Positions 7,752-48,733 of a stretch of 64,000 nucleotides of DNA are shown here, one piece after another (positions within the stretch are counted from its first letter, which is position 1; every line of letters starts with the position of its first letter). The notes beneath the pieces are model-generated. The model was given only the letters and a program-made list of their open reading frames with translations, searched no databases and was not told where the DNA came from. A program made the translations under genes and the position numbers. Source of the DNA: Patescibacteria group bacterium (GTDB taxonomy: Bacteria; Patescibacteriota; Saccharimonadia; UBA4664); the NCBI GenBank assembly GCA_028288925.1, contig JAQGHG010000012.1:13762-77761 (forward strand), in the 5' to 3' direction.

Positions 7752-7859
7752 CGCCGGGGTATTCGTTGGTTAAAGTAGGGGACCTACGATTACTATCACA
7801 CACCATATCGGCCAACTGGTAAATAGTATGGTTCGGATCTTTTTTGTTACTATGTTGGT

Positions 7860-8614: not shown

Positions 8615-8658
8615 CCGGGAAGCGGTTGTATAATGCTTATGTATAGGGAAGGAAATAT

Positions 8659-9423: not shown

Positions 9424-9427
9424 CGGT

Positions 9428-11090: not shown

Positions 11091-11102
11091 ATCGGATAGG
11101 CG

Positions 11103-11513
11103 CTAGTCGGCTGCTTCGGTGGCTGGATTAGGCGGCAAGTTAAGCAGCCGGCGAATGCGCGACACGACATCCGCGATCACGACCTGCGACTTTACGAGAT
11201 AATCATCGGCGCCTAGATCCTTGGCGCGCTGCTGGTCGGAAGGTTGGCTCAAAGCCGACATCACTATAATCTTAATCTTCCGGGTCTCGGTAGTATTGCG
11301 CAATATATCCAGTACATCGAAGCCGTTCAGGCGGGGCATCATGATATCTAGCAGGATAAGCTGGGGCTTAAAATCCTTGGCGGCTTGCAGCGCGGCCTCG
11401 CCACTATCACAGTAGCGGACCTCAAAACCTTCGGCTTCCAAACGCGTCTGATAAACGCTGGCAACTGTCATATCATCCTCAACTAAGAGGATACGGGGTA
11501 AAGCTTGAGTCAT
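11103..11513 (-). CDS. response regulator, receiver domain only
   Basis: LLVEDD…LILLDIMMP…K; no output domain; immediately upstream of the kinase. Confidence 0.85.
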   Translation of the reverse strand: MTQALPRILLVEDDMTVASVYQTRLEAEGFEVRYCDSGEAALQAAKDFKPQLILLDIMMPRLNGFDVLDILRNTTETRKIKIIVMSALSQPSDQQRAKDLGADDYLVKSQVVIADVVSRIRRLLNLPPNPATEAAD

Positions 11514-24416: not shown

Positions 24417-26579
24417 ATGATGTATTACTTAGCTCTCTTATCGCTAATGATTGTCGTCACCGCCGACGCCCTCCTGGGACTTGTCGTATGGCTGCAGGCC
24501 CCGCGCCGCCGGTTAAACCGCATATTTGCCCTCCTCACCGCCTCCTTTATGCTCTGGAGCGCGACCAGCTTCTATGATCAGACCGCGGCCGGACCCGAGA
24601 AGCTATCCCTCCTGATGGCCAATATTCCTTTTGTATTCGCGGCCTCCATCTCACTCTTTATGGTTTTATTCTCGCTCTACTTTCCGGAAAACCATCCGAG
24701 CTCCAACATCACCAGGACAAGAGTCACCTGGGGCCTGGCCTTCACTACACCGCCGCTCCTTGTCATGGCCTTTACTAACCTTCTGGTGTCGGGCACCACT
24801 AGCTCGCCCACGCTAGGCAACAACATTGTCCCTGGACCGCTACTGGGTGTATTCTCAATCTATTTCTTGGGCTGGTTAGGATTCGCGTTAGGCAATCTCT
24901 TCTACAAATTTCGTAAAGCCCGAAGTTCGGCCGATCGTTTGCAGCTCAACTATGTCTTTCTGGGCTTCATGCTTACCACGGTCATAGCGTTCACCACCAA
25001 TGTAATCGTTCCTGTGGCCACGCGTAACCCGACTCTAGTACGCTTCGGATTCCTCTCTACGCTCTTTCTCATTGGCTTCATCGGGTATACCATCGCCGCT
25101 CACCGGCTCTTTAATATCCGGCTGTTGGTAGCCCGCTCGGTAGCCTACATTCTCTTGCTCTCCACGCTCACCGCCGTTTACGGTACGGGAATATTTGCGG
25201 TCAGCCGGCTCCTGTTCCCCGATACTGCCATTACCACCGTGGAAAGCAGCCTGTTTGTGGCTCTGGCTATCCTCATCGCCATCACTTACCAGCCGCTACG
25301 CCGGTTCTTCGAAAAAACCACCGACCGCGCGTTCTTCCGCGACCATTACGATGCCCAAATTGTGCTCGACCAGACCGGCAGCATTTTAGCCTCCGAGCTA
25401 TTATTGAAACCCCTGCTCTCCAAGGCTCTTGAGCAAATCTGCCGGCCCATGCGCCTAAGGAACGGACAATTCCTCGTGCTTGACCACGACAAGCTCTACA
25501 CGCGAACCCATTACGGTCCATTGCTCAAGGACGACGTCACGACCGAGCTCATGCAGCGCCTCAAGCAGCCGCTCATCGTCACCGACGAGCTCCAGCCGGG
25601 AGAGCTCAAGGATGCCCTGGGGCGCCTGGGTATCCGCGTCTCGCTGGTGCTCAAGACTCACGATGAACTAGTCGGATATCTATTTCTGGGGGACAAACTC
25701 AGTGGGGAAATCTATTCAAACCAAGATTTGGCCTTGCTCGAAATCCTCCGCAAAGAGCTGGCCGTAGCTATCGCCAATGCCAAAGCTTACGAGGAAATCG
25801 CCCGCTTCAATATGACACTCCAAGAACGTATCAAGCAGGCTACGGCCCGCCTCAGCTCGGCCAACCGCAACCTCAAGGTGCTCGACAAAGCCAAAGACGA
25901 CTTCATCTCCATGGCCTCGCACCAGCTGGGCACGCCGCTGACCGCCATCACCGGTTACCTCTCCATGTCTCTCGACGAAGACAAAGACAATATGACCATT
26001 GCCCAGCGCGAGTACATCACCTTCGCGCTCGAGGCTTCCGAGCGGATGGTGGCCATGTCCGGTGATCTCCTAAATGTATCGCGCCTGAGCTCCGGCCGCT
26101 TCACGATACAGCGCCAACAAGTCGACTTGAACCATCTGGCCGAGCAAGAGGTAAAACTACTTCAGGCGGCGGCCAAGCGCAAAAACCTCACCCTCACCTT
26201 TACCCCCAGCCCCGGCCTCCCCCAGCTCGACATCGACGAGAGCAAGACTCGCCAGGTCATCATGAATTACGTCGACAATGCCATTTATTACACGCCCAGC
26301 GGCAGCATTCACGTAGAGGTGAAGCAAGAAAACGGCTGGGCCGTCTTTACCGTCACCGACACCGGTATGGGCGTGCCGGAGGCCGAACAGGCCAAGCTGT
26401 TTGCCAAGTTCTACCGCGCCGAAAACGCCCGGGCCTCCCGCCCCGACGGCACCGGCCTCGGCCTCTACCTGGCCAAACGCGTTATCGAGGAGCACGGCGG
26501 CGCCATTATCTTCGCCTCCAAAGCCGGCAAGGGGAGTACCTTCGGTTTTAGCCTACCGCTCAAGGCCAACGCCCCGTAG
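24417..26579 (+). CDS. sensor histidine kinase with 7TM receptor-like N-terminus (GAF-like + HisKA + HATPase_c)
   Basis: ASHQLGTPLT H-box and GTGLGL; paralog of 48734..50902. Confidence 0.85.
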   Translation: MMYYLALLSLMIVVTADALLGLVVWLQAPRRRLNRIFALLTASFMLWSATSFYDQTAAGPEKLSLLMANIPFVFAASISLFMVLFSLYFPENHPSSNITRTRVTWGLAFTTPPLLVMAFTNLLVSGTTSSPTLGNNIVPGPLLGVFSIYFLGWLGFALGNLFYKFRKARSSADRLQLNYVFLGFMLTTVIAFTTNVIVPVATRNPTLVRFGFLSTLFLIGFIGYTIAAHRLFNIRLLVARSVAYILLLSTLTAVYGTGIFAVSRLLFPDTAITTVESSLFVALAILIAITYQPLRRFFEKTTDRAFFRDHYDAQIVLDQTGSILASELLLKPLLSKALEQICRPMRLRNGQFLVLDHDKLYTRTHYGPLLKDDVTTELMQRLKQPLIVTDELQPGELKDALGRLGIRVSLVLKTHDELVGYLFLGDKLSGEIYSNQDLALLEILRKELAVAIANAKAYEEIARFNMTLQERIKQATARLSSANRNLKVLDKAKDDFISMASHQLGTPLTAITGYLSMSLDEDKDNMTIAQREYITFALEASERMVAMSGDLLNVSRLSSGRFTIQRQQVDLNHLAEQEVKLLQAAAKRKNLTLTFTPSPGLPQLDIDESKTRQVIMNYVDNAIYYTPSGSIHVEVKQENGWAVFTVTDTGMGVPEAEQAKLFAKFYRAENARASRPDGTGLGLYLAKRVIEEHGGAIIFASKAGKGSTFGFSLPLKANAP

Positions 26580-32355: not shown

Positions 32356-33573
32356 ATGATTATATCTGACATGACTCCCAACTCACAGCGAAAAGCCCAT
32401 GTACTCGTTATCGGCGGGGGATTTGGTGGTATCCGGGCCGCCCAAAAGCTCGCCCGGCAGCGAGGCGTGAGCGTTACGCTCATCTCCGCCGAAGACAGCT
32501 TCGCCTACTACCCGCAGTTGTACCACGCGGCCACCGGCGGTGTGCACACCGAGTCGGCTATTTCGCTGACCGAGTTGCTGGGTGGCCGCGGCATCGAGGT
32601 GGTGCGCGACACCATTACGGCGCTCGATCCCGAAGCCCGCACCGTCACCGGCGCCGGCGGCGAAGCCTACCATTATGATGAGCTTATCCTGGCGCTCGGC
32701 AGCGTCACCAATTACTTCGGTATCGATGGTCTCGAAAAATTCGCCTACAACATCAAATCCATTGATGGGGCCGAGCGCTTCAAACAGCACTTGCACAAAC
32801 AGCTCGTGGAAGACCACCAGGCCGACCCCAACTATGTCGTGGTAGGCGGCGGTCCCACCGGCGTCGAGCTGGCAGCCGCTCTGGGCCAATACCTACGGCG
32901 CATCATCAAGCTGCACGGACTGGCCAAGCCCAATTTTCAGATTGAACTCATCGAAGCCGCCCCGCGCCTACTACCGCGCTCGCCCGAATCGATGAGTGCC
33001 CGGGTACAGCGCCGCCTCGAAAGCCTGGGCGTGAAGGTCATGACGGGCGCCACCGTCCAGGCCGAGACCGCCGGCGCTCTCCAGGTCAACGGCCGGCCCA
33101 TCAATACCCATACCGTCGTCTGGACCGCTGGAGTAGCCAATAATCCCTTCTTCAAAGCCAACGCCGCCCACTTCAAACTCGCCAAAAATGGCAAAGCCGA
33201 GGTCGACAACCACCTCCAAAGCCAACCCCACATCTACGTGATCGGCGACAACGCCGCCACACCCTACACCGGCATGGCCCAGACCGCCCTCAACGACGCC
33301 GATTACGTCGCCGCCGACATCGTCCGCGCCCTCCACGGCCACGACCGCCCGGCCTACCATCCCGCGGCGCCCATCAGCGTCATCCCGGTGGGGGAAAACT
33401 GGGCCGCAGCGGAATGGGGGCGCGTCTTGCTCTACGGCTACATCGGCTACGTCCTGCGCCGCTTCGCCGACCTCATCGGCTACGCCGACGTCGAAAGCTG
33501 GCCCCGAGCCTTCAAGATTTGGATCCAAGACACCCGCCGCGAAGACAACTGCCTGATCTGCGAACCCAAATAG
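32356..33573 (+). CDS. ndh: type II NADH:quinone oxidoreductase (NDH-2)
   Basis: Two GxGxxG dinucleotide folds (VIGGGFGG, VVGGGPTG); 405 aa. Confidence 0.8.
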   Translation: MIISDMTPNSQRKAHVLVIGGGFGGIRAAQKLARQRGVSVTLISAEDSFAYYPQLYHAATGGVHTESAISLTELLGGRGIEVVRDTITALDPEARTVTGAGGEAYHYDELILALGSVTNYFGIDGLEKFAYNIKSIDGAERFKQHLHKQLVEDHQADPNYVVVGGGPTGVELAAALGQYLRRIIKLHGLAKPNFQIELIEAAPRLLPRSPESMSARVQRRLESLGVKVMTGATVQAETAGALQVNGRPINTHTVVWTAGVANNPFFKANAAHFKLAKNGKAEVDNHLQSQPHIYVIGDNAATPYTGMAQTALNDADYVAADIVRALHGHDRPAYHPAAPISVIPVGENWAAAEWGRVLLYGYIGYVLRRFADLIGYADVESWPRAFKIWIQDTRREDNCLICEPK

Positions 33574-33596
33574 CTAAGCCATCTAGGCCCAATAAT

Positions 33597-33628
33597 AAAG
33601 CCCCTGCTCGAAAGCAAGGGGCTTTATT
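33597..33628 (+). terminator. intrinsic terminator after ndh
   Basis: aaagcccc-tgctcgaaagca-ggggcttt followed by a T-rich stretch. Confidence 0.65.
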
Positions 33629-33639
33629 GAATAATTCCA

Positions 33640-33656
33640 GTGTGCCCGTGGCACAC
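33640..33656 (-). terminator. hairpin downstream of minus-strand gene 33710..34396
   Basis: gtgtgcc-cgt-ggcacac perfect palindrome, with further hairpins up to about 33700. Confidence 0.4.
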
Positions 33657-33709
33657 GCGAGAGGTGAGTCTCGGGTGTGCCACGGATGAACCCGGGAGCC
33701 GTGAGGCTC

Positions 33710-34396
33710 TCAGGATCTGTTGTGCTTGACCGCGTGGGGCAGATCGGCGCCTGGGCGCGTTCCCTGCATACCACATTTGCCGCGGAAAATGCGGCTCCCA
33801 CCCCTCTTGAGGGGAATGACCAGGAAGTCACTCTCCCCTGGGTGGGGGTAGGGGGCGTAGCCCGGCCTAGGCGGGGTGTTGCGATGTGTTCCAGGAACCA
33901 TGTAGTTGGTCCACCATCCCGGCGGGATGGCACGGCGGACCACGCTAGGGTGACGCCAGTCTCCCAACTTACGCAGGAGATCCAGCGCCTTCGCGTGGCG
34001 CGCCGGAGAAATGACCCCATAGGGGCTCTGGTTCGGGTCGAACCAGGCGGCCGTTACGACCGCCAGGATCGGGTCCTCACAGAGCCAGACCCAGAACGTG
34101 CGTACGCCCTCCTCGGGATGAGTCGGGCTCAGGTCTACGCCCCGGCCGGCCGCGTTGGGACCTTCCTTCCCGCGCTGGTTGGCTCGGTAGATAGGCGGCC
34201 CCATCGGTCCACCACCTGCGAGGCAGGCGGTGGGGTCGGTGGGGTCGGTGGGGGCGGTCGCGGTCGGAGCCTGCTTTGTGGCAGCGGGCGGCGACTTCAC
34301 CGGCGTGGCCGATACGACCATACTGGTGAGGAAAACGAAGCCCCCCAGAGAGAGGACCAACGCCGCCATGACGAGTCCAGCTATGCGCTGTCGCAT
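33710..34396 (-). CDS. hypothetical secreted protein (signal/TM, Pro-Thr-Ala linker)
   Basis: RBS GGAGGTG before ATG 34394-34396; 228 aa; about 68% GC; 1-nt gap from the upstream gene's stop. Confidence 0.5.
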   Translation of the reverse strand: MRQRIAGLVMAALVLSLGGFVFLTSMVVSATPVKSPPAATKQAPTATAPTDPTDPTACLAGGGPMGPPIYRANQRGKEGPNAAGRGVDLSPTHPEEGVRTFWVWLCEDPILAVVTAAWFDPNQSPYGVISPARHAKALDLLRKLGDWRHPSVVRRAIPPGWWTNYMVPGTHRNTPPRPGYAPYPHPGESDFLVIPLKRGGSRIFRGKCGMQGTRPGADLPHAVKHNRS

Positions 34397-34397
34397 G

Positions 34398-35075
34398 TCA
34401 CACCTCCGGACGAACCGTGCGGTGAGCGAAGAACCACCCCACGGCAGCCCCTGCGACCACCCCGAGGACGACGCCGAACACGCCGACCAACGGGTTGGAC
34501 AGGATGAACCACGGATGCGGGTCGTTGCCGACCAGCGCGTGGTTGTTGTGCACCAGGCTGGCGAGGCCTCCGAGGAGGAACCCGCCGACGATCGCGCCGA
34601 CGGCGACGATACCCCAGCGCGTCTTGGTCTCGACGGGCCCGCAGCTGTGCGTACAAGCCGCAGGAGCCGAGGGCTGCGCCTCCAGGTCGGTGATCCGTCC
34701 TGAGAGGGACACCAACGCGATCGCGTGGGTGTCGAGGCGCTCATGCGCCCGGTCGGTCTCATGCTCAGTACCGGCGACACGCCCGTAGAGACGGCCGATA
34801 CGACCGCCCTCCCAGGTGACGCGGTCATTGAGGTCATCGAGACGGTCAGCGTGCCCGTCGAGACGTCCGTCCGTCATTGTGCACTGGTGGGTGCAGCGCC
34901 AGTCGCATTGACTCGCCCAGCCACCGTCGCAGCACACGAGGTGCTGGTGGTTGCAGGCGGGCTGGGCCGGGCTGGGGTCTCGCGTGACGATCAACGCCAC
35001 GATGCCCCCGAAAACGAGGGCCATGAACATGAAACCGAGCGAGCCCAACAGGGCCGCGAGGACGATTCCGGACAT
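34398..35075 (-). CDS. hypothetical Cys-rich membrane protein (N-terminal TM, CC/CxxxC cluster, coiled-coil, 2 C-terminal TM)
   Basis: RBS AAGGAGG 7 nt before ATG 35073-35075; 226 aa; about 68% GC. Confidence 0.5.
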   Translation of the reverse strand: MSGIVLAALLGSLGFMFMALVFGGIVALIVTRDPSPAQPACNHQHLVCCDGGWASQCDWRCTHQCTMTDGRLDGHADRLDDLNDRVTWEGGRIGRLYGRVAGTEHETDRAHERLDTHAIALVSLSGRITDLEAQPSAPAACTHSCGPVETKTRWGIVAVGAIVGGFLLGGLASLVHNNHALVGNDPHPWFILSNPLVGVFGVVLGVVAGAAVGWFFAHRTVRPEV

Positions 35076-35225
35076 TTTTGTGCCTCCTTGGAGCTTCCTT
35101 GTAGCATGGTTGTCTGGCATGACACCGCAAAGGAACCGACGACTGTCCTGGCAGCCCAGAGTGCCTCGCACCGCGCCGCGCCGCAAGGCACTCTGGGCTC
35201 CGCCCAACCGCCCACTTTTAAAAAC

Positions 35226-35288
35226 ATGGCCCCAATGGCCACCAAACCTCCGGCGCCTCCCCGCTTTCTAGGGGTGGGTAGTGGGTGA
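35226..35288 (+). promoter_or_regulatory. candidate Pro-rich leader peptide uORF (MAPMATKPPAPPRFLGVGSG) upstream of P-type ATPase
   Basis: 20-codon ORF in the 410-nt leader, followed at about 35385-35430 by an imperfect hairpin and ctttcttttct U-tract; speculative. Confidence 0.25.
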
Positions 35289-35484
35289 CGGCCCGGAGGG
35301 CCCAGGGCGCGGGCCTCGCTCGAATAAAGTCGGTACAGGCGGCATATTCGCGCGAGGCCCCCCTGGGTCTCCTACGGGGCTCTGCCCTTCTTAACCGTCC
35401 TGCACTCGTGCGGGGCGGCCTTTCTTTTCTAAGACCACATACATTGGCCCGGCTGCTCGCATCGGCTTATAATTAACCATAAGC

Positions 35485-37908
35485 ATGAATACCGATACCA
35501 CCGGCCTCACCAGCCGCGAAGCCGCCAAACGCCTCAAGCACTACGGCCCCAACACCCTCGCCGAGGTCAAACGCCGCCCGGCTGTCTTGGCGTTCCTCTC
35601 GCGCTTTACCAACCCGCTCGTCATCATCCTGATGCTGGCCGCCACGCTCTCGGCCTTCCTCGGCGACCGGCTGAGTTTCATTATTATCATCGCCATCGTG
35701 CTCGTGAGCACCGTGCTCGATTTCTTCAACACCTTCCGCTCCGAGAAGGCCGCCGAGGCCCTCAAAGAGCGCGTGCGGGTAGAGGCCGAGGTGTTGCGCG
35801 ACCACAAGTGGGTGGCACTACCGCTCCGGGCGCTCGTGCCGGGCGACATCGTCAAGCTCCAGGCCGGCAAGCTCATTCCGGCCGACGGCGTCGTCGCCGA
35901 GGGCAAGGACCTCTATGCCAACGAATCCTCGCTCACCGGCGAGTCCTTTCCGCAGCCCAAGCCCCCGGCCGCCCCGCTGTATCTGGGCGCCAGCATCACC
36001 AGCGGCTCGGGCACCATGCGCGTCACCCATACCGGCCACGCCACCAAATTCTCCCACCTCGCGCATGCCCTCTCCGCTCAAGACCAGCCCACCGAGTTTG
36101 ACCGCGAGATCAAAGACTTCAGCCTGCTCATCATCAAGATCACCACCTTCCTGGTGATCGTCATCTTCACCTTCAATCTCTTCTTCCGGCACGATCTGCT
36201 GTCGTCATTGCTCTTTAGTGTGGCGCTGGCCGTGGGCCTCACGCCCGAGCTTCTGCCGCTCATCATCACCCTCAACCTCACCAAGGGCTCTCTGGCCATG
36301 GCCAAGCACGGCGTCATCGTCAAACAGCTCTCGTCCATCCAAAACCTCGGTTCCATGGACGTGCTCTGCACCGACAAAACCGGCACGCTCACCGAGGACC
36401 ACATCGCCCTCATCCGCCATGTCGACGGCTTCGGCGCCGAGTCCAGCAAGGTTCTGCTCTACGGCTACCTGGCCAGCGTCTACACCACCGGCTTCGAAAA
36501 CCCGCTCGACAAGGCCGTCCGCACCTTCAAGACCGTCAACATCAAAGGCTACCGCAAGCTCGACGAGATCCCCTACGACTTCGAGCGCAAACGCGAATCC
36601 GTGGTGGTGGCGCACGGCGACAGCCGCCTGCTCATCAGCAAGGGCGCGCCCGAGGAGATCATGCGCATCAGCCACCGCTACGCCGACGGCCGGCCCTTCG
36701 AGGCCGTCAAAGCCGAAGTCCAGGCCGAATACGACTCCCTCAGCGCCGAAGGCTTCCGCGTGCTGGCCGTCGCCATCCACCATGTGCCGCCCACCCATGG
36801 CACCTATGAGCCCGGCATCGAGCACGATCTCACCTTCGTCGGCTTCATGGCCTTCCTGGATCCGGCCAAGCAATCCGTCCGCTCCACACTCGAGCGCATC
36901 CTCGAGTACGGCATACAGGTCAAGATCGTTACCGGCGACAACGCCCTCGTCACCCGCAAGATCGCCAACGACATCAACCTCGAAGTCACCGGCATTCTCA
37001 CCGGCCCGGAAATCGAGCGTATGAGCCAGACCAAACTCCGCGAGGCCGTTGAGCGTACCACCATCTTCGCCCGCGTCAATCCCGAGCAAAAGCTGCGTAT
37101 CATCGAGACGCTCCGCCACAACCATCACGTCGTGGGCTACCTCGGCGACGGCATCAACGACGCCCCCGCCCTCAAGGCCGCCGACGTCGGCATATCCGTC
37201 AACAACGCCGTCGATGTCGCCCGCGCCACCGCCGACCTCATCCTGCTGCGCAAATCGCTCGACAGCCTCATCGAGGGCGTCATCGAAGGCCGCCGCACCT
37301 ACGCCAACACCCTCAAATACCTCATGATGTCGCTCGGCTCCAACTTCGGCAATATGTTTAGCATGGCCGGCGGTTCGCTGTTTTTGCCCTTCCTGCCCAT
37401 GCAAGCCACCCAAATCCTCCTCACCAACCTGCTCTACGACAGCTCGCAATTCGCCCTGCCCCTCGACGGCGTCGACGCCGACAGCCTCAAGCGCCCTCGC
37501 CGGCTCAACATCGCCACCCTCAAGAAGGCTATGTGGGTCTTCGGCCCCCTCAGTTCCATCTTCGACTTCGCCACCTTCGGCGTGCTTATCCTCGTGTTTC
37601 ACCTCAACGCCGCGTCCTTCCAAACCGGCTGGTTCCTCGAATCCGTCGCCACCCAAACCTTCGTGGTCTACATTATCCGCACGCGCCTCATACCGTTCTT
37701 CCAGAGCCGTCCCAGCCCCTATCTGGTGCTGAGCACTCTCGCCACCGTCGCCCTGGGTTACTACCTGGCGCTCAGCCCGCTGGGCAGCTACTTCCACTTC
37801 GGGCCGCTTCCCCTGAGCGCCTTCCTGGCCATCCTCGGCATCGTCGTGGCCTACCTCTTCTCCGCCGAGATCGTAAAGCGCCAATTCTTCCGCCGCGTCG
37901 ATCTGTAG
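35485..37908 (+). CDS. cation-transporting P-type ATPase (MgtA/PMCA-like, P2/P3 type)
   Basis: DKTGTLT phosphorylation motif, a TGES-like motif, and GDGINDAPALKAADVGI. Confidence 0.85.
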   Translation: MNTDTTGLTSREAAKRLKHYGPNTLAEVKRRPAVLAFLSRFTNPLVIILMLAATLSAFLGDRLSFIIIIAIVLVSTVLDFFNTFRSEKAAEALKERVRVEAEVLRDHKWVALPLRALVPGDIVKLQAGKLIPADGVVAEGKDLYANESSLTGESFPQPKPPAAPLYLGASITSGSGTMRVTHTGHATKFSHLAHALSAQDQPTEFDREIKDFSLLIIKITTFLVIVIFTFNLFFRHDLLSSLLFSVALAVGLTPELLPLIITLNLTKGSLAMAKHGVIVKQLSSIQNLGSMDVLCTDKTGTLTEDHIALIRHVDGFGAESSKVLLYGYLASVYTTGFENPLDKAVRTFKTVNIKGYRKLDEIPYDFERKRESVVVAHGDSRLLISKGAPEEIMRISHRYADGRPFEAVKAEVQAEYDSLSAEGFRVLAVAIHHVPPTHGTYEPGIEHDLTFVGFMAFLDPAKQSVRSTLERILEYGIQVKIVTGDNALVTRKIANDINLEVTGILTGPEIERMSQTKLREAVERTTIFARVNPEQKLRIIETLRHNHHVVGYLGDGINDAPALKAADVGISVNNAVDVARATADLILLRKSLDSLIEGVIEGRRTYANTLKYLMMSLGSNFGNMFSMAGGSLFLPFLPMQATQILLTNLLYDSSQFALPLDGVDADSLKRPRRLNIATLKKAMWVFGPLSSIFDFATFGVLILVFHLNAASFQTGWFLESVATQTFVVYIIRTRLIPFFQSRPSPYLVLSTLATVALGYYLALSPLGSYFHFGPLPLSAFLAILGIVVAYLFSAEIVKRQFFRRVDL

Positions 37909-38050: not shown

Positions 38051-39412
38051 GTGAGTATTACTACCGTGCGTGTCGGGGAATTTAGTCAGTACTCAAATTA
38101 CAAAATCTTCATCGCGCTCGGTGGCATGATAGCCCTGGCGCTTGTAGGCACCATCACCGCTATCTTGGCTATGACCCAGATGCTCCAGGTGCGCGAAGTC
38201 AGTCAGCATCACAACGACGCTCGCTTTCAGATGGAAAATCTCCTGACTAACCTTGAGACAGCCGAGACGAGTCAGCGCGGCTACCTTCTTACCGGCGATC
38301 AGGTCTACCTCACTCCCTATCACCAGACCACAATAAATGCCAATCGTCAATTGCAGACGCTCGGTCAGCAATCAAATGGCGCGCCCTATCACACCGACAT
38401 TCTCCGGCTCCAGAGCCTGGTCCATAGCCGCCTCGCTATGCTCGATCAGGGCATCGCGCTATACAGCGCCGGCGATATTGAGGGGTCCGTCGCCAGCCTC
38501 AAATCCGGGCAGGAGAGCGTAATATCCGGGCAGATCCGCCGCTCTGTCTCCGGTATTGAGGAGGCTCAGGCTGGGCTACTAAACCAAGGCCGGCTGAGTG
38601 TTGAATCCTTCGCCGGTCTCGCCCGGGGCGTTAGCCTAGCGACCTTGGGGCTCACGTTGCTGCTGGCTTCATTGGTGTACTACCTGTACGTGAAGGCCAT
38701 CCAAGCCGAACGTGAGCTCGACTACGCCAAGGACGAGTTTGTCTCCCTCGCATCGCATCAGCTGCGCACGCCGGCCACCGGCATCAAGTCGATCCTGGCC
38801 ATGCTGGTAGCCGGCGATCTCGGCCCGCTTGGCCAGCAGCAGAAATATTTCGTCTCCAAGGCGTTGGAGAGCAACGAGCGCGAGATCCGCATTATAGACG
38901 AGCTACTCAATGTGGCCCGGGCCGACGCCGGTCGGCTAGTCCTACGCGCCTCCGAGCTCGAGCTGGGGGCTCTCGTCGCGGCCGTTATAGCCGAGCAGCG
39001 CACAGCCATCGAGAGCAAAAAGATCACCCTTCGCTTCAAGCCAGCCGCCCGTCCCATCCATCTCGAAGCCGACGAAGAAAAACTCTTTATGGCCGTCAGC
39101 AACCTCCTAGACAACGCCCGCAAATACACCCCAGAAAAAGGCAAAATCACGGTCGCCGTTCACGAAAAACGGGGCAGCGCGTCCGTCGAAGTCACCGACA
39201 CCGGCATCGGCATCGACGAAACCGAGATGAGCCATATCTTTGACCGTTTTCAGCGAGCCCGCAATGTGTTGGGCGGCAACATCGAAGGCACCGGATTGGG
39301 TTTATACCTTGCTCGGCGCATCATGGAGTTGCATAATGGGACTATAGAAGTGAGTTCTAAGAAAGATCACGGAACAAAGTTTGTAATGACACTCCCTCAA
39401 AGGAGAACGTAA
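38051..39412 (+). CDS. sensor histidine kinase with CHASE3-like extracytoplasmic domain
   Basis: RGYLLTGD…YL.PY CHASE3 signature, H-box ASHQLRTP, GTGLGL. Confidence 0.8.
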   Translation: MSITTVRVGEFSQYSNYKIFIALGGMIALALVGTITAILAMTQMLQVREVSQHHNDARFQMENLLTNLETAETSQRGYLLTGDQVYLTPYHQTTINANRQLQTLGQQSNGAPYHTDILRLQSLVHSRLAMLDQGIALYSAGDIEGSVASLKSGQESVISGQIRRSVSGIEEAQAGLLNQGRLSVESFAGLARGVSLATLGLTLLLASLVYYLYVKAIQAERELDYAKDEFVSLASHQLRTPATGIKSILAMLVAGDLGPLGQQQKYFVSKALESNEREIRIIDELLNVARADAGRLVLRASELELGALVAAVIAEQRTAIESKKITLRFKPAARPIHLEADEEKLFMAVSNLLDNARKYTPEKGKITVAVHEKRGSASVEVTDTGIGIDETEMSHIFDRFQRARNVLGGNIEGTGLGLYLARRIMELHNGTIEVSSKKDHGTKFVMTLPQRRT

Positions 39413-40762: not shown

Positions 40763-42445
40763 ATGCCGCGCAAACCCGCAAGACCAAGACCCAGAGGACC
40801 CCTGGCAACGCTCTCGAGCGTGATGCTGGGGCTCCTCCTCCTGATCGGCATCACGGCGAGCACGACGAGTCCCGCGCGGGCCGCCACCCTCTCCGCGTAT
40901 GCCTTCACGGATAGCCTAGGCATTGCCATCAGGCATGCCGACGGCACCTATGCCCAGCTCACGACCGGGACTACTCCCGATCGCAGTACCTGGGATGACC
41001 AACCCGCCATCTCGCCCAGCGGCAACAAGGTGGCCTTCACGCGCGGCCACACTCTGGCTGACGGCGTCAATCGAACCGAGATCTACACGGTGCCGATCGG
41101 AGGCGGCGCGCCTGTTCAGGTAACGAGCCTCGGTTCGTACTTCGAACGGCCCAGCTGGCTGTCCGAGACCGAGCTGATCGCGCCCTGGCTCAATCAGGGT
41201 GTCGCCTACGGCCAGGCCTATCGCATCTCGTTGAGCGATGGTTCGACCGTCAAGCTCACCGATGCCATCTGGGTCCTTTCGGCGGCAGCCTGTCACGACG
41301 GCCGGATGGCGTACGACACTGTCTCTCAGGGCGACACACATGATCTGCACGTGGCCAGCGCTACCGACGGAAGCGGTGATGTCCAGCTCACCAGCGGCAT
41401 CACGGTAAACCGAGTGGCATGGACGCCAGACTGCCGATACATCTTGTTCGACGTCTGGGATCCCGCTACCGGCCATGTGAACATGTTCACGCTGTCTGCC
41501 GCGGCCAAGCTAGGCGACAAGCCCATCCAGCTCACGACTGGCAACTACGACACCCAGGGCTCAGTCGGCAACGACTGGGTGATGGCCTATGTCCACGGCG
41601 AGACCGGGAGCGACATCTACACGCTTCCACTCGGCACCGGCAGCCAGCCGACCGCCCAGTCCAACTACCAAGGTGGAAACGAGTGGCCGGCCTTCGCAGC
41701 CGGCGATGGCAGCGTTCCGGCCCCAGCCGACTTCCCGCCGGGTAGTAGCACGCCACCGCCGAGCAAGTGCCCGACACTTCAGATCGTCGGGGTGAGAGGC
41801 TCAGGCGAAACGGCAGCGATGAATGATGGGCTAGGGCCCACAGTCGCTGCTGTGAAGACGACGATCGCTTCGAAGGTCGCCGGAACAGGCTTCCAGGCGA
41901 TCAACTATCCTGCCGTCAAGGTAAATCTGGGGGATATCCACTACGGCCCCAACTACCTCGTCAGCGTAGACAAAGGCAGGGCGGCGCTGAGCAAGTTCCT
42001 GTTCAAGTTCTTCGCGTCCTGCCCCGCGACCTATGTCGTCATCGTGGGTTATAGCCAGGGTGCTCAGGTGGCCCTTGATGCCGCCGCGGTACTGACTTCG
42101 ATGCAGCAAAAACACATTGCTGCGCTTATCGGACTCGGCGACCCCCGATTCAGCCCGAAGCAGACAGTCATCGACGACGGTGACTATGACACGAAGCTGT
42201 CGGGGTCTTACCTGAAGTTCGATTCCAAGCTTCGAGGTATTTCGGGAACACTGGCTCCTCGAACGCACAGCTACTGCACGGTAGGGGACCCGGTCTGTAG
42301 CCTGTCTTCCAAGAACCTGGCAGTCTGCGCGGCCAAGCTGGCACAAAACAAGTGCGCTCACCAGCTTTATATAGCGCGCAACTGGACTAGCCTGGCTGCT
42401 CTATGGGCGGTCAAGCATTGGAGGGGGCTGCCGAAGCTCAAGTAG
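40763..42445 (+). CDS. secreted fusion protein: TolB-like beta-propeller + C-terminal cutinase-family serine esterase
   Basis: Signal peptide; WD40-like/TolB repeats; GYSQGA nucleophile-elbow, and conserved Cys pairs (CP…C, C…VGDPVC) of the cutinase fold; about 62% GC. Confidence 0.65.
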   Translation: MPRKPARPRPRGPLATLSSVMLGLLLLIGITASTTSPARAATLSAYAFTDSLGIAIRHADGTYAQLTTGTTPDRSTWDDQPAISPSGNKVAFTRGHTLADGVNRTEIYTVPIGGGAPVQVTSLGSYFERPSWLSETELIAPWLNQGVAYGQAYRISLSDGSTVKLTDAIWVLSAAACHDGRMAYDTVSQGDTHDLHVASATDGSGDVQLTSGITVNRVAWTPDCRYILFDVWDPATGHVNMFTLSAAAKLGDKPIQLTTGNYDTQGSVGNDWVMAYVHGETGSDIYTLPLGTGSQPTAQSNYQGGNEWPAFAAGDGSVPAPADFPPGSSTPPPSKCPTLQIVGVRGSGETAAMNDGLGPTVAAVKTTIASKVAGTGFQAINYPAVKVNLGDIHYGPNYLVSVDKGRAALSKFLFKFFASCPATYVVIVGYSQGAQVALDAAAVLTSMQQKHIAALIGLGDPRFSPKQTVIDDGDYDTKLSGSYLKFDSKLRGISGTLAPRTHSYCTVGDPVCSLSSKNLAVCAAKLAQNKCAHQLYIARNWTSLAALWAVKHWRGLPKLK

Positions 42446-42995: not shown

Positions 42996-43033
42996 GCCTT
43001 CTTACTAGAACTAACTATAATAAACCGTAAGAG

Positions 43034-43358
43034 ATGATATTCAACCAGGAGGATTCATCATCGCCGGGGGTTTTTAGACTGCGATCCTCGGTTCAACCCT
43101 CAAGTATCTTTTAATATCAAGGCGAAGGTCGCTCCAGGAGCCGAGGTCCTCATCAACGAGTACCCACGTTTCTTCAAGATCAAGCCCACGGCCGCGTGCA
43201 AGGCGGGCGGCATTACGTTCGACAAGTCCGACCAGATCTGGATCAACGGTGCCATCCTTCGGCTAAACCAGGTCATATCGAAGGCGGCGCACAAGGCCGG
43301 TGTAACTCCGGTTGATACACATGTATGTATAATATGCTCATGGTTATTCAAACTCTAA
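43034..43358 (+). pseudogene. small gene split by a frameshift at a G5T5 homopolymer (candidate phase-variable gene or pseudogene)
   Basis: An ATG at 43034 opens a 26-codon ORF. A 107-codon ORF (43038..43358) in the next frame has no canonical start. The junction falls in ccgggggttttt at 43066-43075. Confidence 0.3.
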
Positions 43359-43582
43359 ATTATATCTACAATAGCTTTTGGAACCCTATTATCGGGTATA
43401 CCCTACTCGCATCTCTTGTTGGAGGCCTGATACTAGCACTTTATACGGTCGTCATATTCGCAAAAAGAAAGCCCGGCGATAGATCGAAAAAATATCTTAT
43501 ATATTGGTTAATCGCATGCGCGCTGCTCTTATTTAGTTATTTCCAATTCACCCTCATGCTAGGGTCGAGTATCATGTGGTGA
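43325..43582 (+). CDS. small hydrophobic protein (2 TM)
   Basis: 85 aa, low GC, no RBS evident. Confidence 0.3.
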   Translation: MYNMLMVIQTLNYIYNSFWNPIIGYTLLASLVGGLILALYTVVIFAKRKPGDRSKKYLIYWLIACALLLFSYFQFTLMLGSSIMW

Positions 43583-43698
43583 ATTCCGGGGTGCCTATTA
43601 ATTCTTTCTGCGCTAGCGTCGATCGCAAGTGGGCCGAAAGCGACGCGCTGTAGGTGGTAATATACTCGCTTTATACTTACGCTTAAGGAAGGCGTTAA

Positions 43699-43923
43699 AT
43701 GTTTCAGACCGTATACGATCTTTACATAACCCCACTCATGCCGATTATTTGGCCCTCATTACTCGTTCTTGGTCTATTCCTGGCACCATTTGGGTTTATT
43801 TCCAGCTTTGTCGTTAAGAACCGGAAAGCTAAAACGATTCTGCGGATTGCAGGTGCTGCGGGCCTCGGCTGTCTCCTTGTGCTGGGCATTCTATTTGTCA
43901 TCAACTTCAATGTACCTTGGTAG
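43699..43923 (+). CDS. small hydrophobic protein (2 TM)
   Basis: RBS AAGGAAGG before the ATG; 74 aa. Confidence 0.4.
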   Translation: MFQTVYDLYITPLMPIIWPSLLVLGLFLAPFGFISSFVVKNRKAKTILRIAGAAGLGCLLVLGILFVINFNVPW

Positions 43924-44061
43924 GGGCAACTAACCATTTTGAAAAACGTACGACTACTACCGAGTTTAATTAGAACTACTGTTTTTATAACCCCCGTATT
44001 GCTGGGCCTGGTTCTTGTAAAAACCGGGCGATAGCTTCTCTGGATGTACTTTTCTTAACGC

Positions 44062-44451
44062 TTAACTCGCGCTCTTCGCCAACAGCGCCTTCACCCGCTC
44101 GGCCACCTGCTTCGGTGTCATCTCGGCCTTCACGATGTAGTCGTCGGCGGCCATCTTGTAGACCTTGGTAGCGGTTTCGGTGTCGCCCATGTTAGTCAGC
44201 ACCACCACTTTGGCATCGCGCCCGGCCGGCTGGCTGCGCAGGCGCTGGAGCATGTCCAGGCCGTTCATATTTGGCATCATTAAATCTAGCAAAATAATAT
44301 CGGGCGTATACGTGTCTATTAATTCTAGCCCGCTCACACCATCCGGAGCGGTCGCTACATCGTAGCCCTCGTTCTCAAACTTGGTCCGATACATTTGTAC
44401 GATCGCGATATCATCTTCGATGATGGCGACTTTGACTTTTTTAGTGCTCAT
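44062..44451 (-). CDS. response regulator, receiver domain only (orphan)
   Basis: VAIIEDD…IILLDLMMPNMNG…K; no adjacent kinase. Confidence 0.85.
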   Translation of the reverse strand: MSTKKVKVAIIEDDIAIVQMYRTKFENEGYDVATAPDGVSGLELIDTYTPDIILLDLMMPNMNGLDMLQRLRSQPAGRDAKVVVLTNMGDTETATKVYKMAADDYIVKAEMTPKQVAERVKALLAKSAS

Positions 44452-44729
44452 GCTCCAAGTATAGACACGAGTTTCCAGATAGCGCAAGCATATATTGTGA
44501 GTCATGCTCTGTAATTATCAGGTACATGAGTGAGTATTCAGATCCGAGTTCAAAATGTCAAGAATGTTCGACAATAGTGGGGTCATTATCGTCAAAAAGC
44601 TCGGCAATCCCGAACGATTGCTTATCGCGTCCCATCTTCAACAGCACAGAATTGTACCGCAGTACTTTCCAAATATTCTCTTCGGTTAGCTCCGATATTC
44701 CTCGAGATCGTTCACATCCACCTTGCGAC

Positions 44730-45845
44730 CTACTCTGCGAACTCTTTCATCATGGTGCGTAAAATCTTGAGTCCCTTCACTAGGGTAGTGTGCTTGGTAG
44801 CAAAAGCAATGCGGATGTAATCCTGACGTTTCGAGAAAGCCCGCGACGGCAGCACAATTAGGCTGCGCTTGGCCGCTTCCTCGCAAAACTCCAAATCCGT
44901 CATCCCGGACGGTAGCTGCACAAACGCGTAAAAAGCGCCGTGGGAGCCATAGATATCGAACATCGGCTCTAGATAGCGCAGTACCATATCGCGCTTCGCC
45001 CGATATTTTTTAATCAGACGCTGCGGGCTATGGGACAGCGCCGCCAGAGCCGCTTTCTCGGCAATCGAAGAATTGGAGAACACCACATACTGCTGTAGTT
45101 GATTAACCGCCTGGATAAACTCTTCGGGCCCGGCCAAGTAACCCACCCGCCAGCCCGTCATAGCATATGCCTTGGAAAACCCATTAAGCGTAACCGTGTT
45201 TTTATATACGCTTCCAATACTGAAATGCGGGGTGTTATAGGAGAAATACTCGTAAATCTCGTCAGACAAAATGGTGATATTGTGCTCTTTGGCCATTCGG
45301 GCGATTCGGCGCAACTCACGCTCCGGATAAACCGCCCCCGAGGGATTGTTAGGAGAATTAATTAGCAAGACCTTGGTCTTGGGTGTAATATGCTGCTCCA
45401 CCAATCGGGCCGTTAGCTGAAAACTTGGGTACGTATCAATCGCCACCGGCACCGCGCCGAGCATCCGCGCCAGATCAAAATAGGGAGGGAAATACGGATC
45501 AGGTATTAGAACCTCATCACCCGGGTCAAGCAAAGCTAGATAACTCAGCAAAATTCCGGTAGTAACACCAGGCGTTACCGTTACCAGATCTGGCGTTACT
45601 TTAATTTTATTTTCGCGGGTAAGCTTCTCCGCTATTGCCGCGCGGAGCTCAAAGATGCCGTTAGAGGGTGTATAACGGGTAAAATCCTGGGAAATTGCCC
45701 GAATCCCGGCGGCCTTAATATAGTCCGGAGTCGCATCTTCGGGAAATCCAATGCTTAAGTCGATAGGGTCGGGAATTTCACGCACCCGGCTAAATGCTTT
45801 ACGTATATGGCTACTATCGAATTGGGCGATGCGCTTGGCGATCAT
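44730..45845 (-). CDS. pyridoxal-phosphate-dependent aminotransferase class I/II
   Basis: NSPNNPSG motif and the GFSKAYAMTGWRVGY lysine motif. Confidence 0.85.
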   Translation of the reverse strand: MIAKRIAQFDSSHIRKAFSRVREIPDPIDLSIGFPEDATPDYIKAAGIRAISQDFTRYTPSNGIFELRAAIAEKLTRENKIKVTPDLVTVTPGVTTGILLSYLALLDPGDEVLIPDPYFPPYFDLARMLGAVPVAIDTYPSFQLTARLVEQHITPKTKVLLINSPNNPSGAVYPERELRRIARMAKEHNITILSDEIYEYFSYNTPHFSIGSVYKNTVTLNGFSKAYAMTGWRVGYLAGPEEFIQAVNQLQQYVVFSNSSIAEKAALAALSHSPQRLIKKYRAKRDMVLRYLEPMFDIYGSHGAFYAFVQLPSGMTDLEFCEEAAKRSLIVLPSRAFSKRQDYIRIAFATKHTTLVKGLKILRTMMKEFAE

Positions 45846-45965
45846 TCATTTACTATAGCCTAATTTCCAGACCCGAACCAAGCGTCTATTCGCGGTATGT
45901 GGGAGATAATCTAACTTATTAGGCTATTTTTTGTTATTATGCCTATTGTAATAGCCATACTATAA

Positions 45966-47516
45966 ATGACAGTTTCGTCAATCAAGGTTAGCAAAACCCC
46001 CTCCTTTCCGGCGTTATCAGCTCAAGCCCACCCGCTTGAGCTTCTCCGGCATCTTCGGCATGAGCCGGAGGAATACTGGCTGGCTCGGGGCGCCGAAAAG
46101 GCCATTAAGCTATTCCATGACGCGGCGGATCACGTGCCAGCCTACCGGAAATATCTCAAGGCTCAAGGCTTTAATCCCGCACTTGTGCATGATATTGGCG
46201 ATTTGGTACTTATCCCAACCACGAGCAAAGCCGGTTACCTACGGCGTTATTCGCGCCCAGAGCTATGCTGGAACGGTGATTTTCGTTCCGTCCGTTGGAC
46301 TATCTCGACCACATCTGGCTCCACCGGCGAGCCTTTTTACTTTCCCCGCACCGCCGAGCAAGACAAGCAATATGCCCTTTTGGCGGAGCTTTATTTGCGC
46401 ACAAATTTCCGTATTCATGAGCGCAGTACACTCTACATTGTGGCGTTTCCTATGGGTGCTTGGATCGGTGGACTGTTTACGTATGAAGCCGTCCGCCGGG
46501 TAGGGGAGAGTGGTGATTATGCGCTGAGTATCATCACTCCCGGGATCAATAAGTTGGAAGTAATTAAGGCGGTGCAAAATATCGGACATGATTTTGACCA
46601 GGTAATCATCGGGTCGTATGCGCCCTTTCTCAAAGACATCATCGATGACGGCCGGCGAGCTGGGCTAAACTGGGCCGATTACAATCTGGGCTTCATTTTT
46701 TCGGCCGAAGGTTTCAGCGAAACCTTCCGCGATTATGTTGCGGAAAAGACCGGTTTAACCAATATCTATACCGACACACTCAACCATTACGGCACAGTCG
46801 ATCTCGGCACCATGGCTTACGAAACACCGGTGTCGATTCTGATCCGGCGCATGGCCTTGGACCGGCCGGCTCTCTATGAAACTATCTTCAGGCAGACGGC
46901 CAAATTGCCCACCCTGGCACAATATCTGCCCGAGCAATTTTACTTTGAAGAAAGCAATGGTCAGCTCTACTGCACGGCCTCAAGCGGTTTGCCGCTCGTG
47001 CGTTACGATCTTCAAGATCTCGGCGGTGTCATCACGTACGGGCAAATGGAGCGGCACTTTGCCGACCATGGCCTAGACCTAAACGCCGAGATCCAGGCTG
47101 CCGGTCTGACCGACCTCAGCTGGAACCTGCCATTTGTCTACGTCCATGAGCGCAGTGATTTCTCGGTCTCGTTCTTTGCTTTCCAAATCCATCCTCAAAC
47201 CGTACGAAATGCCTTGGCGGGCGGCCAGCTCGCCGAAGAACTCACAGGCAAATTTACCATGACCGTGGAATACGATCTCGAAGGCCAGCAGCATCTGCAC
47301 ACCCATGTAGAGCTTAAAATCGACACGCCCGAGTCGCCCGAGCTTCACGACCGGGTGCAGCTGGCTATTGTGGAGCGGCTGCTGGCCGAAAGTTCAGAGT
47401 ATCGCCGTACCTTTGAAGAATACGGCGAGCGCGTCTATCCGCTCTTAACCTTCTGGCCCTATGAGGATCCTATCTACTTTAAACCGGGGACGAAACAGAA
47501 ATGGACGATAAAATAA
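45966..47516 (+). CDS. adenylate-forming enzyme, PaaK/coenzyme-F390-synthetase/CapK-like (ANL superfamily)
   Basis: TSGSTGEP AMP-binding P-loop; 516 aa; overlaps the next gene by 16 nt. Confidence 0.7.
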   Translation: MTVSSIKVSKTPSFPALSAQAHPLELLRHLRHEPEEYWLARGAEKAIKLFHDAADHVPAYRKYLKAQGFNPALVHDIGDLVLIPTTSKAGYLRRYSRPELCWNGDFRSVRWTISTTSGSTGEPFYFPRTAEQDKQYALLAELYLRTNFRIHERSTLYIVAFPMGAWIGGLFTYEAVRRVGESGDYALSIITPGINKLEVIKAVQNIGHDFDQVIIGSYAPFLKDIIDDGRRAGLNWADYNLGFIFSAEGFSETFRDYVAEKTGLTNIYTDTLNHYGTVDLGTMAYETPVSILIRRMALDRPALYETIFRQTAKLPTLAQYLPEQFYFEESNGQLYCTASSGLPLVRYDLQDLGGVITYGQMERHFADHGLDLNAEIQAAGLTDLSWNLPFVYVHERSDFSVSFFAFQIHPQTVRNALAGGQLAEELTGKFTMTVEYDLEGQQHLHTHVELKIDTPESPELHDRVQLAIVERLLAESSEYRRTFEEYGERVYPLLTFWPYEDPIYFKPGTKQKWTIK

Positions 47517-48679
47517 TGAAAGGAATACACAACAACATGACCGCTCCCATAATTCTGCTTGAAGGCCACTACACAGAGACCGAGCTAAGCCAACTCAAAA
47601 ACGAAAAAATCTGGAATTTCAAAGACATATATCAACCTCAACTCACTGAGCTCTTTGAAATCTTAAACGCCCAGCTGATCGGTATGCCGGAGTTTGAGGG
47701 CAAGCTCAAAGAGTTTATCGCCGAGAGATCAGTCCCCAAGTCGGAACTAAGAGGGAATTACGTCTATTACCCGTGGTCGGGTCTTTTGCTCCACATGGTC
47801 AACGAAGAGGAATTAAATATCCTTCGCACAAACCGTACAAATAACCTGATTACCCGCGACGAGCAAAAGAAACTGGCCAAGTTTAGCGCCGGAGTAGCCG
47901 GCTTGTCGTTCGGTAACGGCATTGCTCTCTCTCTAGTGTATAGTGGCATCGCTAACACCATTAAAATCGCCGACCGCGACATCTTCGAAACCACTAACCT
48001 GAACCGAGTTCGAGTCGGCCTTCCGAGCGTGAATGAATCTAAGCCGGTCGTAACTGCCCGGGAGATCTATGAAATCAATCCTTATGCCGACATTTCCATA
48101 TATTCCGATGGGATAACCACCGAAAACATTGATTCCTTCATTGGGGGAGACACAAAGCTAAACGTTGTTTTCGATGTGGTCGACAGCTTCGCCATGAAAG
48201 TACGGTTGCGGCTGGCAGCCAAGCAGGCCAAAGTTCCAGTGATTATGCTCACCAGCCTGGAAGATAGCATTCTCGTTGACGTGGAGCGCTTCGATCTCGA
48301 TCCTTCTGCCGAAATATTTCATGGATTACTCGGCGGCGTGACAGATGACCTATTGACAAAAGAAATGACCGAGCAGGACAAGGCCAAATATGCAATGGCA
48401 ATTGTCGGTCCAGAACACGTTTCCTACCGTAATCTCTTGTCGCTCTCGAACATTGGTAAAAGCCTGGTTTCGCGCCCCCACCTGTACGGAACAGTCAGCA
48501 TTGTTTGCGGCTTAGCCTCTTATATTGTAAAAAGAATCGCCCTCGGCGAAGACATGCCGAGCATGCGAACCCATGTGGCATTCAATGAAGTACTCGGTAT
48601 TTTGCCTAATAAAGACGACACGCCTCAGGCTAGAGAAACCATATTGTCCCAATTGATGCGGAATTCAGCCAAAAATTAG
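47501..48679 (+). CDS. ThiF/MoeB/E1-like adenylyltransferase with about 125-aa N-terminal extension
   Basis: Gly-rich loop AGLSFGNG, DRDIFETTNLNRV (matches DxDxVxxSNLNRQ) and VFDVVDS; no CxxC motifs. Confidence 0.7.
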   Translation: MDDKIMKGIHNNMTAPIILLEGHYTETELSQLKNEKIWNFKDIYQPQLTELFEILNAQLIGMPEFEGKLKEFIAERSVPKSELRGNYVYYPWSGLLLHMVNEEELNILRTNRTNNLITRDEQKKLAKFSAGVAGLSFGNGIALSLVYSGIANTIKIADRDIFETTNLNRVRVGLPSVNESKPVVTAREIYEINPYADISIYSDGITTENIDSFIGGDTKLNVVFDVVDSFAMKVRLRLAAKQAKVPVIMLTSLEDSILVDVERFDLDPSAEIFHGLLGGVTDDLLTKEMTEQDKAKYAMAIVGPEHVSYRNLLSLSNIGKSLVSRPHLYGTVSIVCGLASYIVKRIALGEDMPSMRTHVAFNEVLGILPNKDDTPQARETILSQLMRNSAKN

Positions 48680-48733
48680 TTCCCATGCTGCCCCCTGATA
48701 GCGCTTCTGCTATAGTTAAAGCATAAGCAAGTT

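Follow-up and report, generated by a model that had tools for sequence, protein, structure and literature searches.

Is the most GC-rich block of a Saccharimonadia genome fragment imported DNA, a set of spurious open reading frames (ORFs) or a genuine part of the gene content of this lineage, and what could its products do? We asked this for positions 33640–35470 of a stretch of 64,000 nucleotides (nt), referred to as the window, in which two hypothetical proteins, here called A and B, are encoded between ndh (NDH-2) and mgtA (P-type Mg2+ ATPase). The closest relatives of mgtA are found in metagenome-assembled genomes (MAGs) of Saccharimonadia (77–81% identity). The two genes constitute a real operon with coupled translation in the genome of a soil member of the Saccharimonadia. 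B defines a new and rare protein family with a confidently predicted fold that matches no solved structure. With moderate confidence we regard the pair as an undescribed envelope module of soil Saccharimonadia, which recurs in different genomes, undergoes gain, loss and duplication, and evolves at a far higher rate than its housekeeping neighbors. The newness refers only to the failure to assign either protein to a known family or a solved fold, and not to a demonstrated mechanism.

A and B form a two-gene operon

Gene A (JWN01_565) extends from 35075 to 34398 on the minus strand and codes for 225 amino acids (aa). Gene B (JWN01_564) follows on the same strand from 34396 to 33710 and codes for 228 aa, with 1 nt between the TGA of A and the ATG of B. 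Both are preceded by strong ribosome-binding sites (RBSs), which can be read from the sequence of the minus strand: AAGGAGG at 35083–35089, with a spacing of 7 nt to the ATG of A, and GGAGGTG at 34401–34407, which lies within the 3' end of gene A with a spacing of 5 nt to the ATG of B. A first-pass annotation of this DNA had described two minus-strand genes with these RBSs and this gap, and each of these elements was confirmed. The deduced proteins are identical to the hypothetical proteins of these names in a MAG named Patescibacteria group bacterium.

Other frames of the GC-rich block contain several overlapping ORFs of 150–375 aa, and sequence searches alone reveal no significant homolog of A. 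Both points would fit spurious long open frames in GC-rich DNA. However, the coding pattern, in which GC content decreases from the third over the first to the second codon position (GC3 > GC1 > GC2), is seen only in the frames of A and B and is lacking in the overlapping plus-strand ORFs. The RBSs, the tight coupling and the presence of a terminator likewise speak for genes, as does the position of an A-like partner gene, which is conserved across loci. For B the objection is effectively refuted, since its homologs are full-length and under purifying selection and its fold is predicted with confidence; a lack of homologs together with a lack of expression had been named in the first-pass annotation as a result that would speak against the genes. 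Given the coding-type composition, the strong RBSs, the common terminator, the exact MAG records, the homologs of B and its predicted fold, we consider the chance that these are spurious frames to be negligible.

Strong Shine-Dalgarno sites are rare in the window: about 4 were found among 42 genes, and two of them belong to A and B. A match of four or more bases was present in just 13 of the 42 genes, and many gene starts carry a TAnnnT-like box 6–12 nt 5' of the ATG (for example at 24417, 26684, 39853, 44730, 54872 and 59804). Leaderless initiation seems to be common in this genome, so that the strong RBSs of A and B stand out.

Protein B belongs to a rare family with an unmatched predicted fold

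Protein B (33710–34396, minus strand) contains an N-terminal hydrophobic signal or anchor (residues 5–27) and a Pro/Thr/Ala linker (residues 31–57), both as described in the first-pass annotation, followed by an alpha+beta domain at about residues 65–225. The segment PTDPTDPTA of the linker is encoded by three 9-nt tandem units at 34228–34258 on the minus strand (CGGTGGGGT on the plus strand; direct repeat D3), a type of repeat that can alter the length of the stalk via slippage.

A word-indexed search of 5.8 billion proteins returned only the self-match, for B as well as for A, and five proteins were returned by the profile version of the search. An exhaustive HMMER search over 1.84 billion cluster representatives revealed eight relatives of B (E-values 2e-17 to 6e-6), which comprise 238–260 aa, share 30–39% identity with B and align end to end. 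Three further diverged members, P0011 and the two copies B1 and B2 on contig L084, were recovered by profile search and from their neighboring genes, giving a total of 11 diverged members at 28–37% identity. All members have the same layout: a charged N-terminus, a hydrophobic helix, a linker rich in Pro, Ser, Thr and Ala, and the domain. None of the 11 matched a Pfam family. A and B had no match above cut-off in Pfam, NCBIfam or PHROG (best E-values 0.05–0.25), and searches against PDB sequences gave nothing meaningful, either with the B profile or with A. PADLOC, applied to A, B, three A-like partners and homolog P0009, reported just two weak matches of coiled-coil type, both to the A-like partner on L082. 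The earlier statement that neither protein falls into a recognizable family thus holds.

We modeled B with AlphaFold2 on a 10-sequence alignment, which gave a pTM of 0.70 and a pLDDT of about 90 over residues 70–220. The predicted domain of about 165 aa consists of three helices (94–107, 109–119 and 131–144) followed by six strands. Foldseek searches with this model found nothing significant in PDB (best E 0.3, TM-score 0.13) or BFVD (best E 0.1). Between the two closest B homologs (82% identical) dN/dS is 0.31 for the domain and 0.96 for the signal and linker part; this comparison of one pair indicates that the domain is functional although its constraint is not tight.

The conserved cysteines of B are C58, C106 and C208, and shared motifs are YxAN, LCxDP, DW, WTxxMxPG and RxxCGxQ; C106, D108, T163, R205, C208 and Q211 are invariant polar residues. 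The invariant Cys106-x-Asp108 stands directly before helix 109–119, and the helices pack on an antiparallel sheet bearing T163, R205, C208 and Q211. In these respects B is reminiscent of papain-like and NlpC/P60 hydrolases, suggesting that B may be an extracytoplasmic enzyme that uses Cys106 as nucleophile on cell-wall or envelope substrates, with A as its membrane regulator or anchor. A Josephin-type cysteine deubiquitinase is among the top PDB matches of Foldseek, and the window encodes other envelope-active enzymes, namely a cutinase-domain protein and a polysaccharide deacetylase. However, the Foldseek matches are insignificant (E >= 0.3, probability <= 0.06, TM-score 0.13–0.14), so that no fold similarity to solved members of these enzyme families was found. 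A conserved catalytic Cys-His pair is also lacking: no His is invariant, and in three of the first nine members (P0003, P0007 and P0008) Asp or Asn takes the place of His185, the only candidate (in YPHG). None of the 11 members matches NlpC/P60, peptidase or transglutaminase families in Pfam, and C106 could simply form a disulfide with C208 or C58. We therefore regard an enzyme of this kind as unlikely.

VirB8/TcpC-type subunits of type IV secretion systems (T4SS) and mycobacterial Mce-associated membrane proteins are bitopic proteins in which an N-terminal anchor precedes an ectodomain of alpha+beta (NTF2-like) type. B shares with them the charged N-terminus, the hydrophobic helix, the linker and the order of helices followed by a curved antiparallel sheet, and it too is encoded beside a polytopic membrane partner. 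The succession of three helices and six strands is compatible with an NTF2-like or VirB8-like domain, but the Foldseek matches of B to NTF2-like structures (3ebt, 7epn and 4j9a) are insignificant, with E-values above 1 (1.2–2.4) and TM-scores of at most 0.25. B members also differ from the VirB8, SnoaL and Mce-associated families in having no Pfam match, and no T4SS or Mce genes are located nearby.

Surface proteins that had escaped annotation are known from another member of the class: the Pam pilins of Candidatus Mycosynbacter amalyticus are Ig-like and assemble by donor-strand exchange (bioRxiv 10.64898/2026.03.03.709456). A and B would be a further case of previously unannotated Saccharimonadia surface proteins. 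A Pam pilus identity was nevertheless rejected, as the helix-plus-sheet fold predicted for B and the gene context both differ from those of the Pam system (bioRxiv 10.64898/2026.03.03.709456).

Protein A combines three hydrophobic helices with a copy-specific cysteine cluster

Along protein A (34398–35075, minus strand) a first transmembrane (TM) helix is followed by a Cys/His-rich segment, a helical hairpin (residues 70–132), the motif C141-T-H-S-C145 and two further TM helices; the three hydrophobic helices lie at about residues 4–30, 154–181 and 189–219. Six of the eight cysteines fall into residues 41–65 with the spacing C-x6-CC-x7-C-x3-C-x3-C, accompanied by three His, and the remaining two into the C-T-H-S-C motif. 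The first-pass annotation had recognized the N-terminal TM helix, the exact Cys string at 41–65, a helical middle part and the two C-terminal TM helices, to which Cys 141 and 145 have to be added.

The region coding for the Cys/His cluster (residues 41–65, CNHQHLVCCDGGWASQCDWRCTHQC) is located at 34881–34955 on the minus strand. A structure prediction of this cluster had been proposed earlier with a zinc ribbon in mind. The segment was modeled at a pLDDT below 50 and the cluster is missing from all A-like partners, which carry 0–1 Cys; it is present only in the window copy and is not a feature of the family. All A-like proteins carry a (C/H)-T-H motif a short distance N-terminal to the last two helices, and all are rich in K/R behind TM1 and at the C-terminal end. 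By the positive-inside rule, these K/R-rich flanks predict a topology with the N-terminus outside, the middle part cytoplasmic and the C-terminus inside.

The module recurs at variable sites in Saccharimonadia

An A-like gene of the same architecture was found directly upstream of B homologs wherever the Saccharimonadia contig or the lineage-unassigned contig L090 was long enough. Such a three-TM partner is present at five loci, with a gap or overlap of 0–13 nt. Four of these loci are on Saccharimonadia contigs; the fifth is on L090, a 1.1-kb contig that is not assignable to a lineage. The partner comprises 227 aa on L082 and 247 aa on L083/L089, and on L090 a C-terminal fragment is encoded. 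L084 carries two tandem A-B modules together with further genes at the mgtA–ndh site (7636–10404). The A partner of its first module is reduced to the C-terminal half (121 aa, with an H-T-H motif and two TM helices), that of the second comprises 189 aa, and B1 and B2 are only 34–36% identical. On L082 and L089 the module is located downstream of ruvA. The RuvA of L089 clusters at 90% identity with that of a Candidatus Saccharimonadia; the RuvA of L082 is 81% identical to the L089 protein.

Comparison of relatives, proposed in the first-pass annotation, did reveal a synteny break: in L003 some 400 nt lie between ndh and mgtA, and A and B are absent; in the window this distance amounts to 1911 nt and contains A and B. 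Between the same conserved flanks there is thus no module in L003, one in the window and two in L084. When the window and 89 loci were translated in six frames and searched with hidden Markov models (HMMs) of the A and B families, no additional copy came to light, and no remnant was seen in L001–L004. In alignments of the ndh–mgtA spacer DNA, matches were confined to the ends of the coding regions and to some 20 nt directly preceding the mgtA ATG, and the edges of the insertion could not be mapped.

In L001 about 1.5 kb (8366–9820) separate an ndh-like gene from mgtA. This interval contains no convincing ORF, its GC content falls from 0.69 to 0.38, and the A and B HMMs find no trace in it. It may represent cargo that has decayed, or other cargo, at this variable site.

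Sequence identity differs strongly between the module and its surroundings. L084 and the window share 77% identity in mgtA, 64% in ndh and 71% in FolD, compared with 28–36% in B. Between L082 and L089 identity is 81% for RuvA, 41–46% for B and 26% for A. Where housekeeping neighbors are 64–81% identical, B is thus at 28–46% and A at about 26%, suggesting that the module either diverges much faster or has been repeatedly replaced.

B also occurs without an A-like partner, on two contigs of 67% GC, L081 and L087. Other genes of L081 share clusters (at least 90%) with proteins labeled Streptosporangiaceae or Mycobacteriaceae, and on L087 the B gene stands among integrase, transposase and AAA-ATPase genes. 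Both copies group with the Saccharimonadia B proteins of L082 and L083 at 44–46% identity, and form one tight branch among the more diverse Saccharimonadia copies. The window B is about equally distant from every member (28–36%; 35% for the actinobacterial copies).

The patchy distribution, the variation of copy number at a single site, the very fast divergence and the one homolog amid integrase, transposase and AAA-ATPase genes could also indicate cargo of mobile elements or phages, with a function in superinfection exclusion, spread or defense, that moves between epibiont and host genomes. We searched collections of 50,697 phage records and 72,556 plasmids by tblastn: B and P0009 had no match in either, and A, compared with the phages only, gave a single match with E 0.7. 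Scans of IMG/VR viral contigs with B and a sub-alignment found nothing, and scans of JGI metagenome contigs gave no match. PADLOC found no defense family for A, B and four homologs, PHROG matches were no better than E 0.05, and no mobility genes adjoin any of the Saccharimonadia copies. Mobile cargo is thus quite improbable.

Base composition does not point to recent import

The first-pass annotation had described the block as a 68% GC island and suggested horizontal acquisition from a high-GC Gram-positive donor. It is indeed the top 1.83-kb window of the 64 kb by GC (mean 57.2%, standard deviation 4.0), but its overall GC content is 66.3%, the value of 68.2% is reached only within 34001–35000, and the adjoining genes are GC-high as well (ndh 62.4%, mgtA 62.8%). 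GC3 amounts to 0.84 for A, 0.76 for B and 0.88 for mgtA, compared with 0.71 ± 0.09 for 47 gene-like ORFs of the window. On a synonymous-codon score built from window genes, A reaches 0.213 and B 0.137 (host 0.137 ± 0.118). A codon-usage analysis had been suggested as a check for foreign origin; both genes turn out to be within the host range. Only GC2 is deviant (A 0.50, B 0.58, versus 0.435 ± 0.05 for the 47 ORFs). Since the excess lies at codon position 2 while GC3 and codon usage are host-like, the high GC content reflects proteins rich in Pro, Ala, Gly, Thr and Arg and not recent import.

Several observations would nevertheless fit a recently acquired island from an actinobacterial donor. 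The block shares with classical genomic islands its presence or absence between conserved flanks, such as the adjacent ndh and mgtA of L003, and a local maximum of GC. A and B hold two of the about 4 strong Shine-Dalgarno sites, and B homologs are found on Actinobacteria-like contigs of 67% GC, in one case among integrase and transposase genes. Besides its host-like codon usage, however, the block differs from classical islands in that no integrase, tRNA or att-like repeats are associated with it: the sole tRNA of the window is at 63574, and no flanking direct repeat was longer than expected by chance. The same site holds diverged copies elsewhere, as L084 carries two modules there, and complete A-B pairs occur on Saccharimonadia contigs and one unassigned contig but on no Actinobacteria-like contig. 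The phage, plasmid and viral-contig collections yielded no match. The actinobacterial link made earlier survives in so far as homologs of B are present on such high-GC contigs, but the window B is no closer to these than to the remaining members. We consider recent import from such a donor improbable.

A surface role is the best inference for the module

Saccharimonadia live attached to other bacteria, and Actinobacteria are the usual host phylum of cultured representatives. To our knowledge, few molecules of the Saccharimonadia-host interface are known. The best inference for the A/B module is that it works at the cell surface in an accessory or interface role; contact with host or phage is suggested by its fast divergence, its patchy distribution and the sharing of B with Actinobacteria. 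The genes are paired, surface-directed, fast-evolving and variable in copy number, and one of the two also occurs in Actinobacteria-like genomes; such properties would be expected of a determinant that faces the host or phages.

According to the predicted features, A would span the membrane three times, with a short N-terminus outside, the Cys/His segment and the helical hairpin in the cytoplasm, and the (C/H)-T-H motif just before the last two helices. B would be exported via Sec and either remain tethered by its N-terminal helix or be released after cleavage, with the Pro/Thr-rich stalk holding out the compact domain of about 165 aa. The two proteins may form a membrane complex, in which B would represent the surface-exposed, fast-evolving part that faces the outside, possibly the envelope of an actinobacterial host or phages. 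A could anchor B or relay a signal to the cytoplasm.

A more specific version holds that the B domain is a new fold on a Pro/Thr stalk that recognizes or modifies the envelope of the actinobacterial host, that A relays this contact via a coiled coil and a metal-binding motif, and that epibiont and host have exchanged the B gene, which may have passed from the former to the latter. This direction would fit the single tight branch of actinobacterial copies among more diverse Saccharimonadia copies. Taken as a whole, we see this scenario as a long shot.

Several points weigh against an undescribed, fast-diverging envelope module. The structure model of A is of low confidence (pLDDT 57), and its topology is based on charge counts alone. 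Similarity of the window A to other A-like proteins is marginal by BLASTP (E 0.02 and 0.49), with shuffle z-scores of 0.3–4.1 that are inflated by the TM segments; the A-like partners of L082 and L083, by comparison, are clearly related (z = 9, 26% identity). The low identity of B at the same site could mean independent insertions instead of fast divergence. Finally, the B family amounts to about a dozen sequences, mostly on short contigs, so that few comparisons stand behind both its distribution and the rate contrast.

Genomes of this kind commonly encode hypothetical membrane proteins. What sets A and B apart from ordinary ones is the conserved pairing, the confident but unmatched predicted fold, the rate contrast and the occurrence of B across phyla. 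The envelope module thus offers a small and concrete target for structural and genetic work on the Saccharimonadia interface.

Hairpins, spacer and the mgtA promoter

Downstream of gene B, where the first-pass annotation had noted hairpin-rich sequence at 33597–33700, we found two hairpins. A bidirectional terminator hairpin (AATAAAGCCCCT / AGGGGCTTTATT) at 33594–33628 consists of a 12-nt perfect inverted repeat bordered by A/T runs. It acts on both strands as a common element of the convergent genes ndh (plus strand) and B (minus strand), and is terminator-like on the minus strand. The second hairpin (33646–33685, minus strand) lies shortly after the stop codon of gene B and has 17-nt arms with 94% complementarity.

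The 409-nt spacer between the divergent genes A and mgtA (35076–35484) was analyzed by folding, repeat and terminator scans and proved to be structured, with folding z-scores relative to shuffled sequences of -5.1 on the plus strand and -3.75 on the minus strand. An 11-bp inverted repeat reported earlier at 35155–35197 is present and forms part of a longer hairpin at 35153–35199, the 23-nt arms of which are 87% complementary. A further hairpin is located at 35311–35360. On the plus strand a terminator-like hairpin with a T-run (35395–35418) lies directly 5' of the mgtA promoter, with no plus-strand gene upstream of it. This region may encode a small RNA, be left over from an ndh terminator or form the 5' untranslated region of gene A. 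A hairpin is similarly placed in L003, near 9898–9925. Rfam models gave no match at gathering score within 33000–36000 (best Thr_leader with 25 bits versus a threshold of 55, on the terminator hairpins), and no M-box was found upstream of mgtA in this interval.

Conservation of the spacer is confined to the last 20 nt or so before the mgtA ATG. Here a conserved -10 box, TATAAT (35468–35473), is followed by AACCATAAGC and the mgtA ATG (35468–35487 in total), an arrangement kept in five Saccharimonadia genomes; its counterparts are at 9990–10004 in L003 and at about 7398–7420 (minus strand) in L084, and are also present in L001 and L002. Only 11 nt separate the -10 box from the start codon and no Shine-Dalgarno site is present, which suggests that the mgtA mRNA is leaderless or near-leaderless.

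Other genes of the window

Apart from ndh and mgtA, the neighbors of the operon in the window include a cytochrome bo-type oxidase (cyo) operon, a CHASE3 histidine kinase, FolD and the cutinase-domain protein. The latter (40763–42445, plus strand) has 560 aa, a C-terminal cutinase domain (Pfam E 1e-24) and a GC2 of 0.53. The mycolyl-arabinogalactan esterases of mycobacteriophages belong to the cutinase-like esterases, and the protein may hint at an actinobacterial host that contains mycolic acids. Four sensor histidine kinases are encoded within the 64 kb, at 9428–11170, 24417–26579, 38051–39412 and 48734–50902 (PAS, unknown N-terminus, CHASE3 and 7TM types), which is a high number for a reduced Patescibacteria genome.

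The real outlier of the window in composition is found on the low side, at 43000–49000, with 45–51% GC and a GC3 of 0.56–0.60. Two plus-strand genes, 45966–47516 and 47501–48679, fall into this stretch. They code for a 516-aa protein without Pfam match and, overlapping with it, a ThiF/E1-like protein with only weak matches to E1-E2 models of PADLOC. The stretch may be an acquired ubiquitin-like or defense-type cassette.

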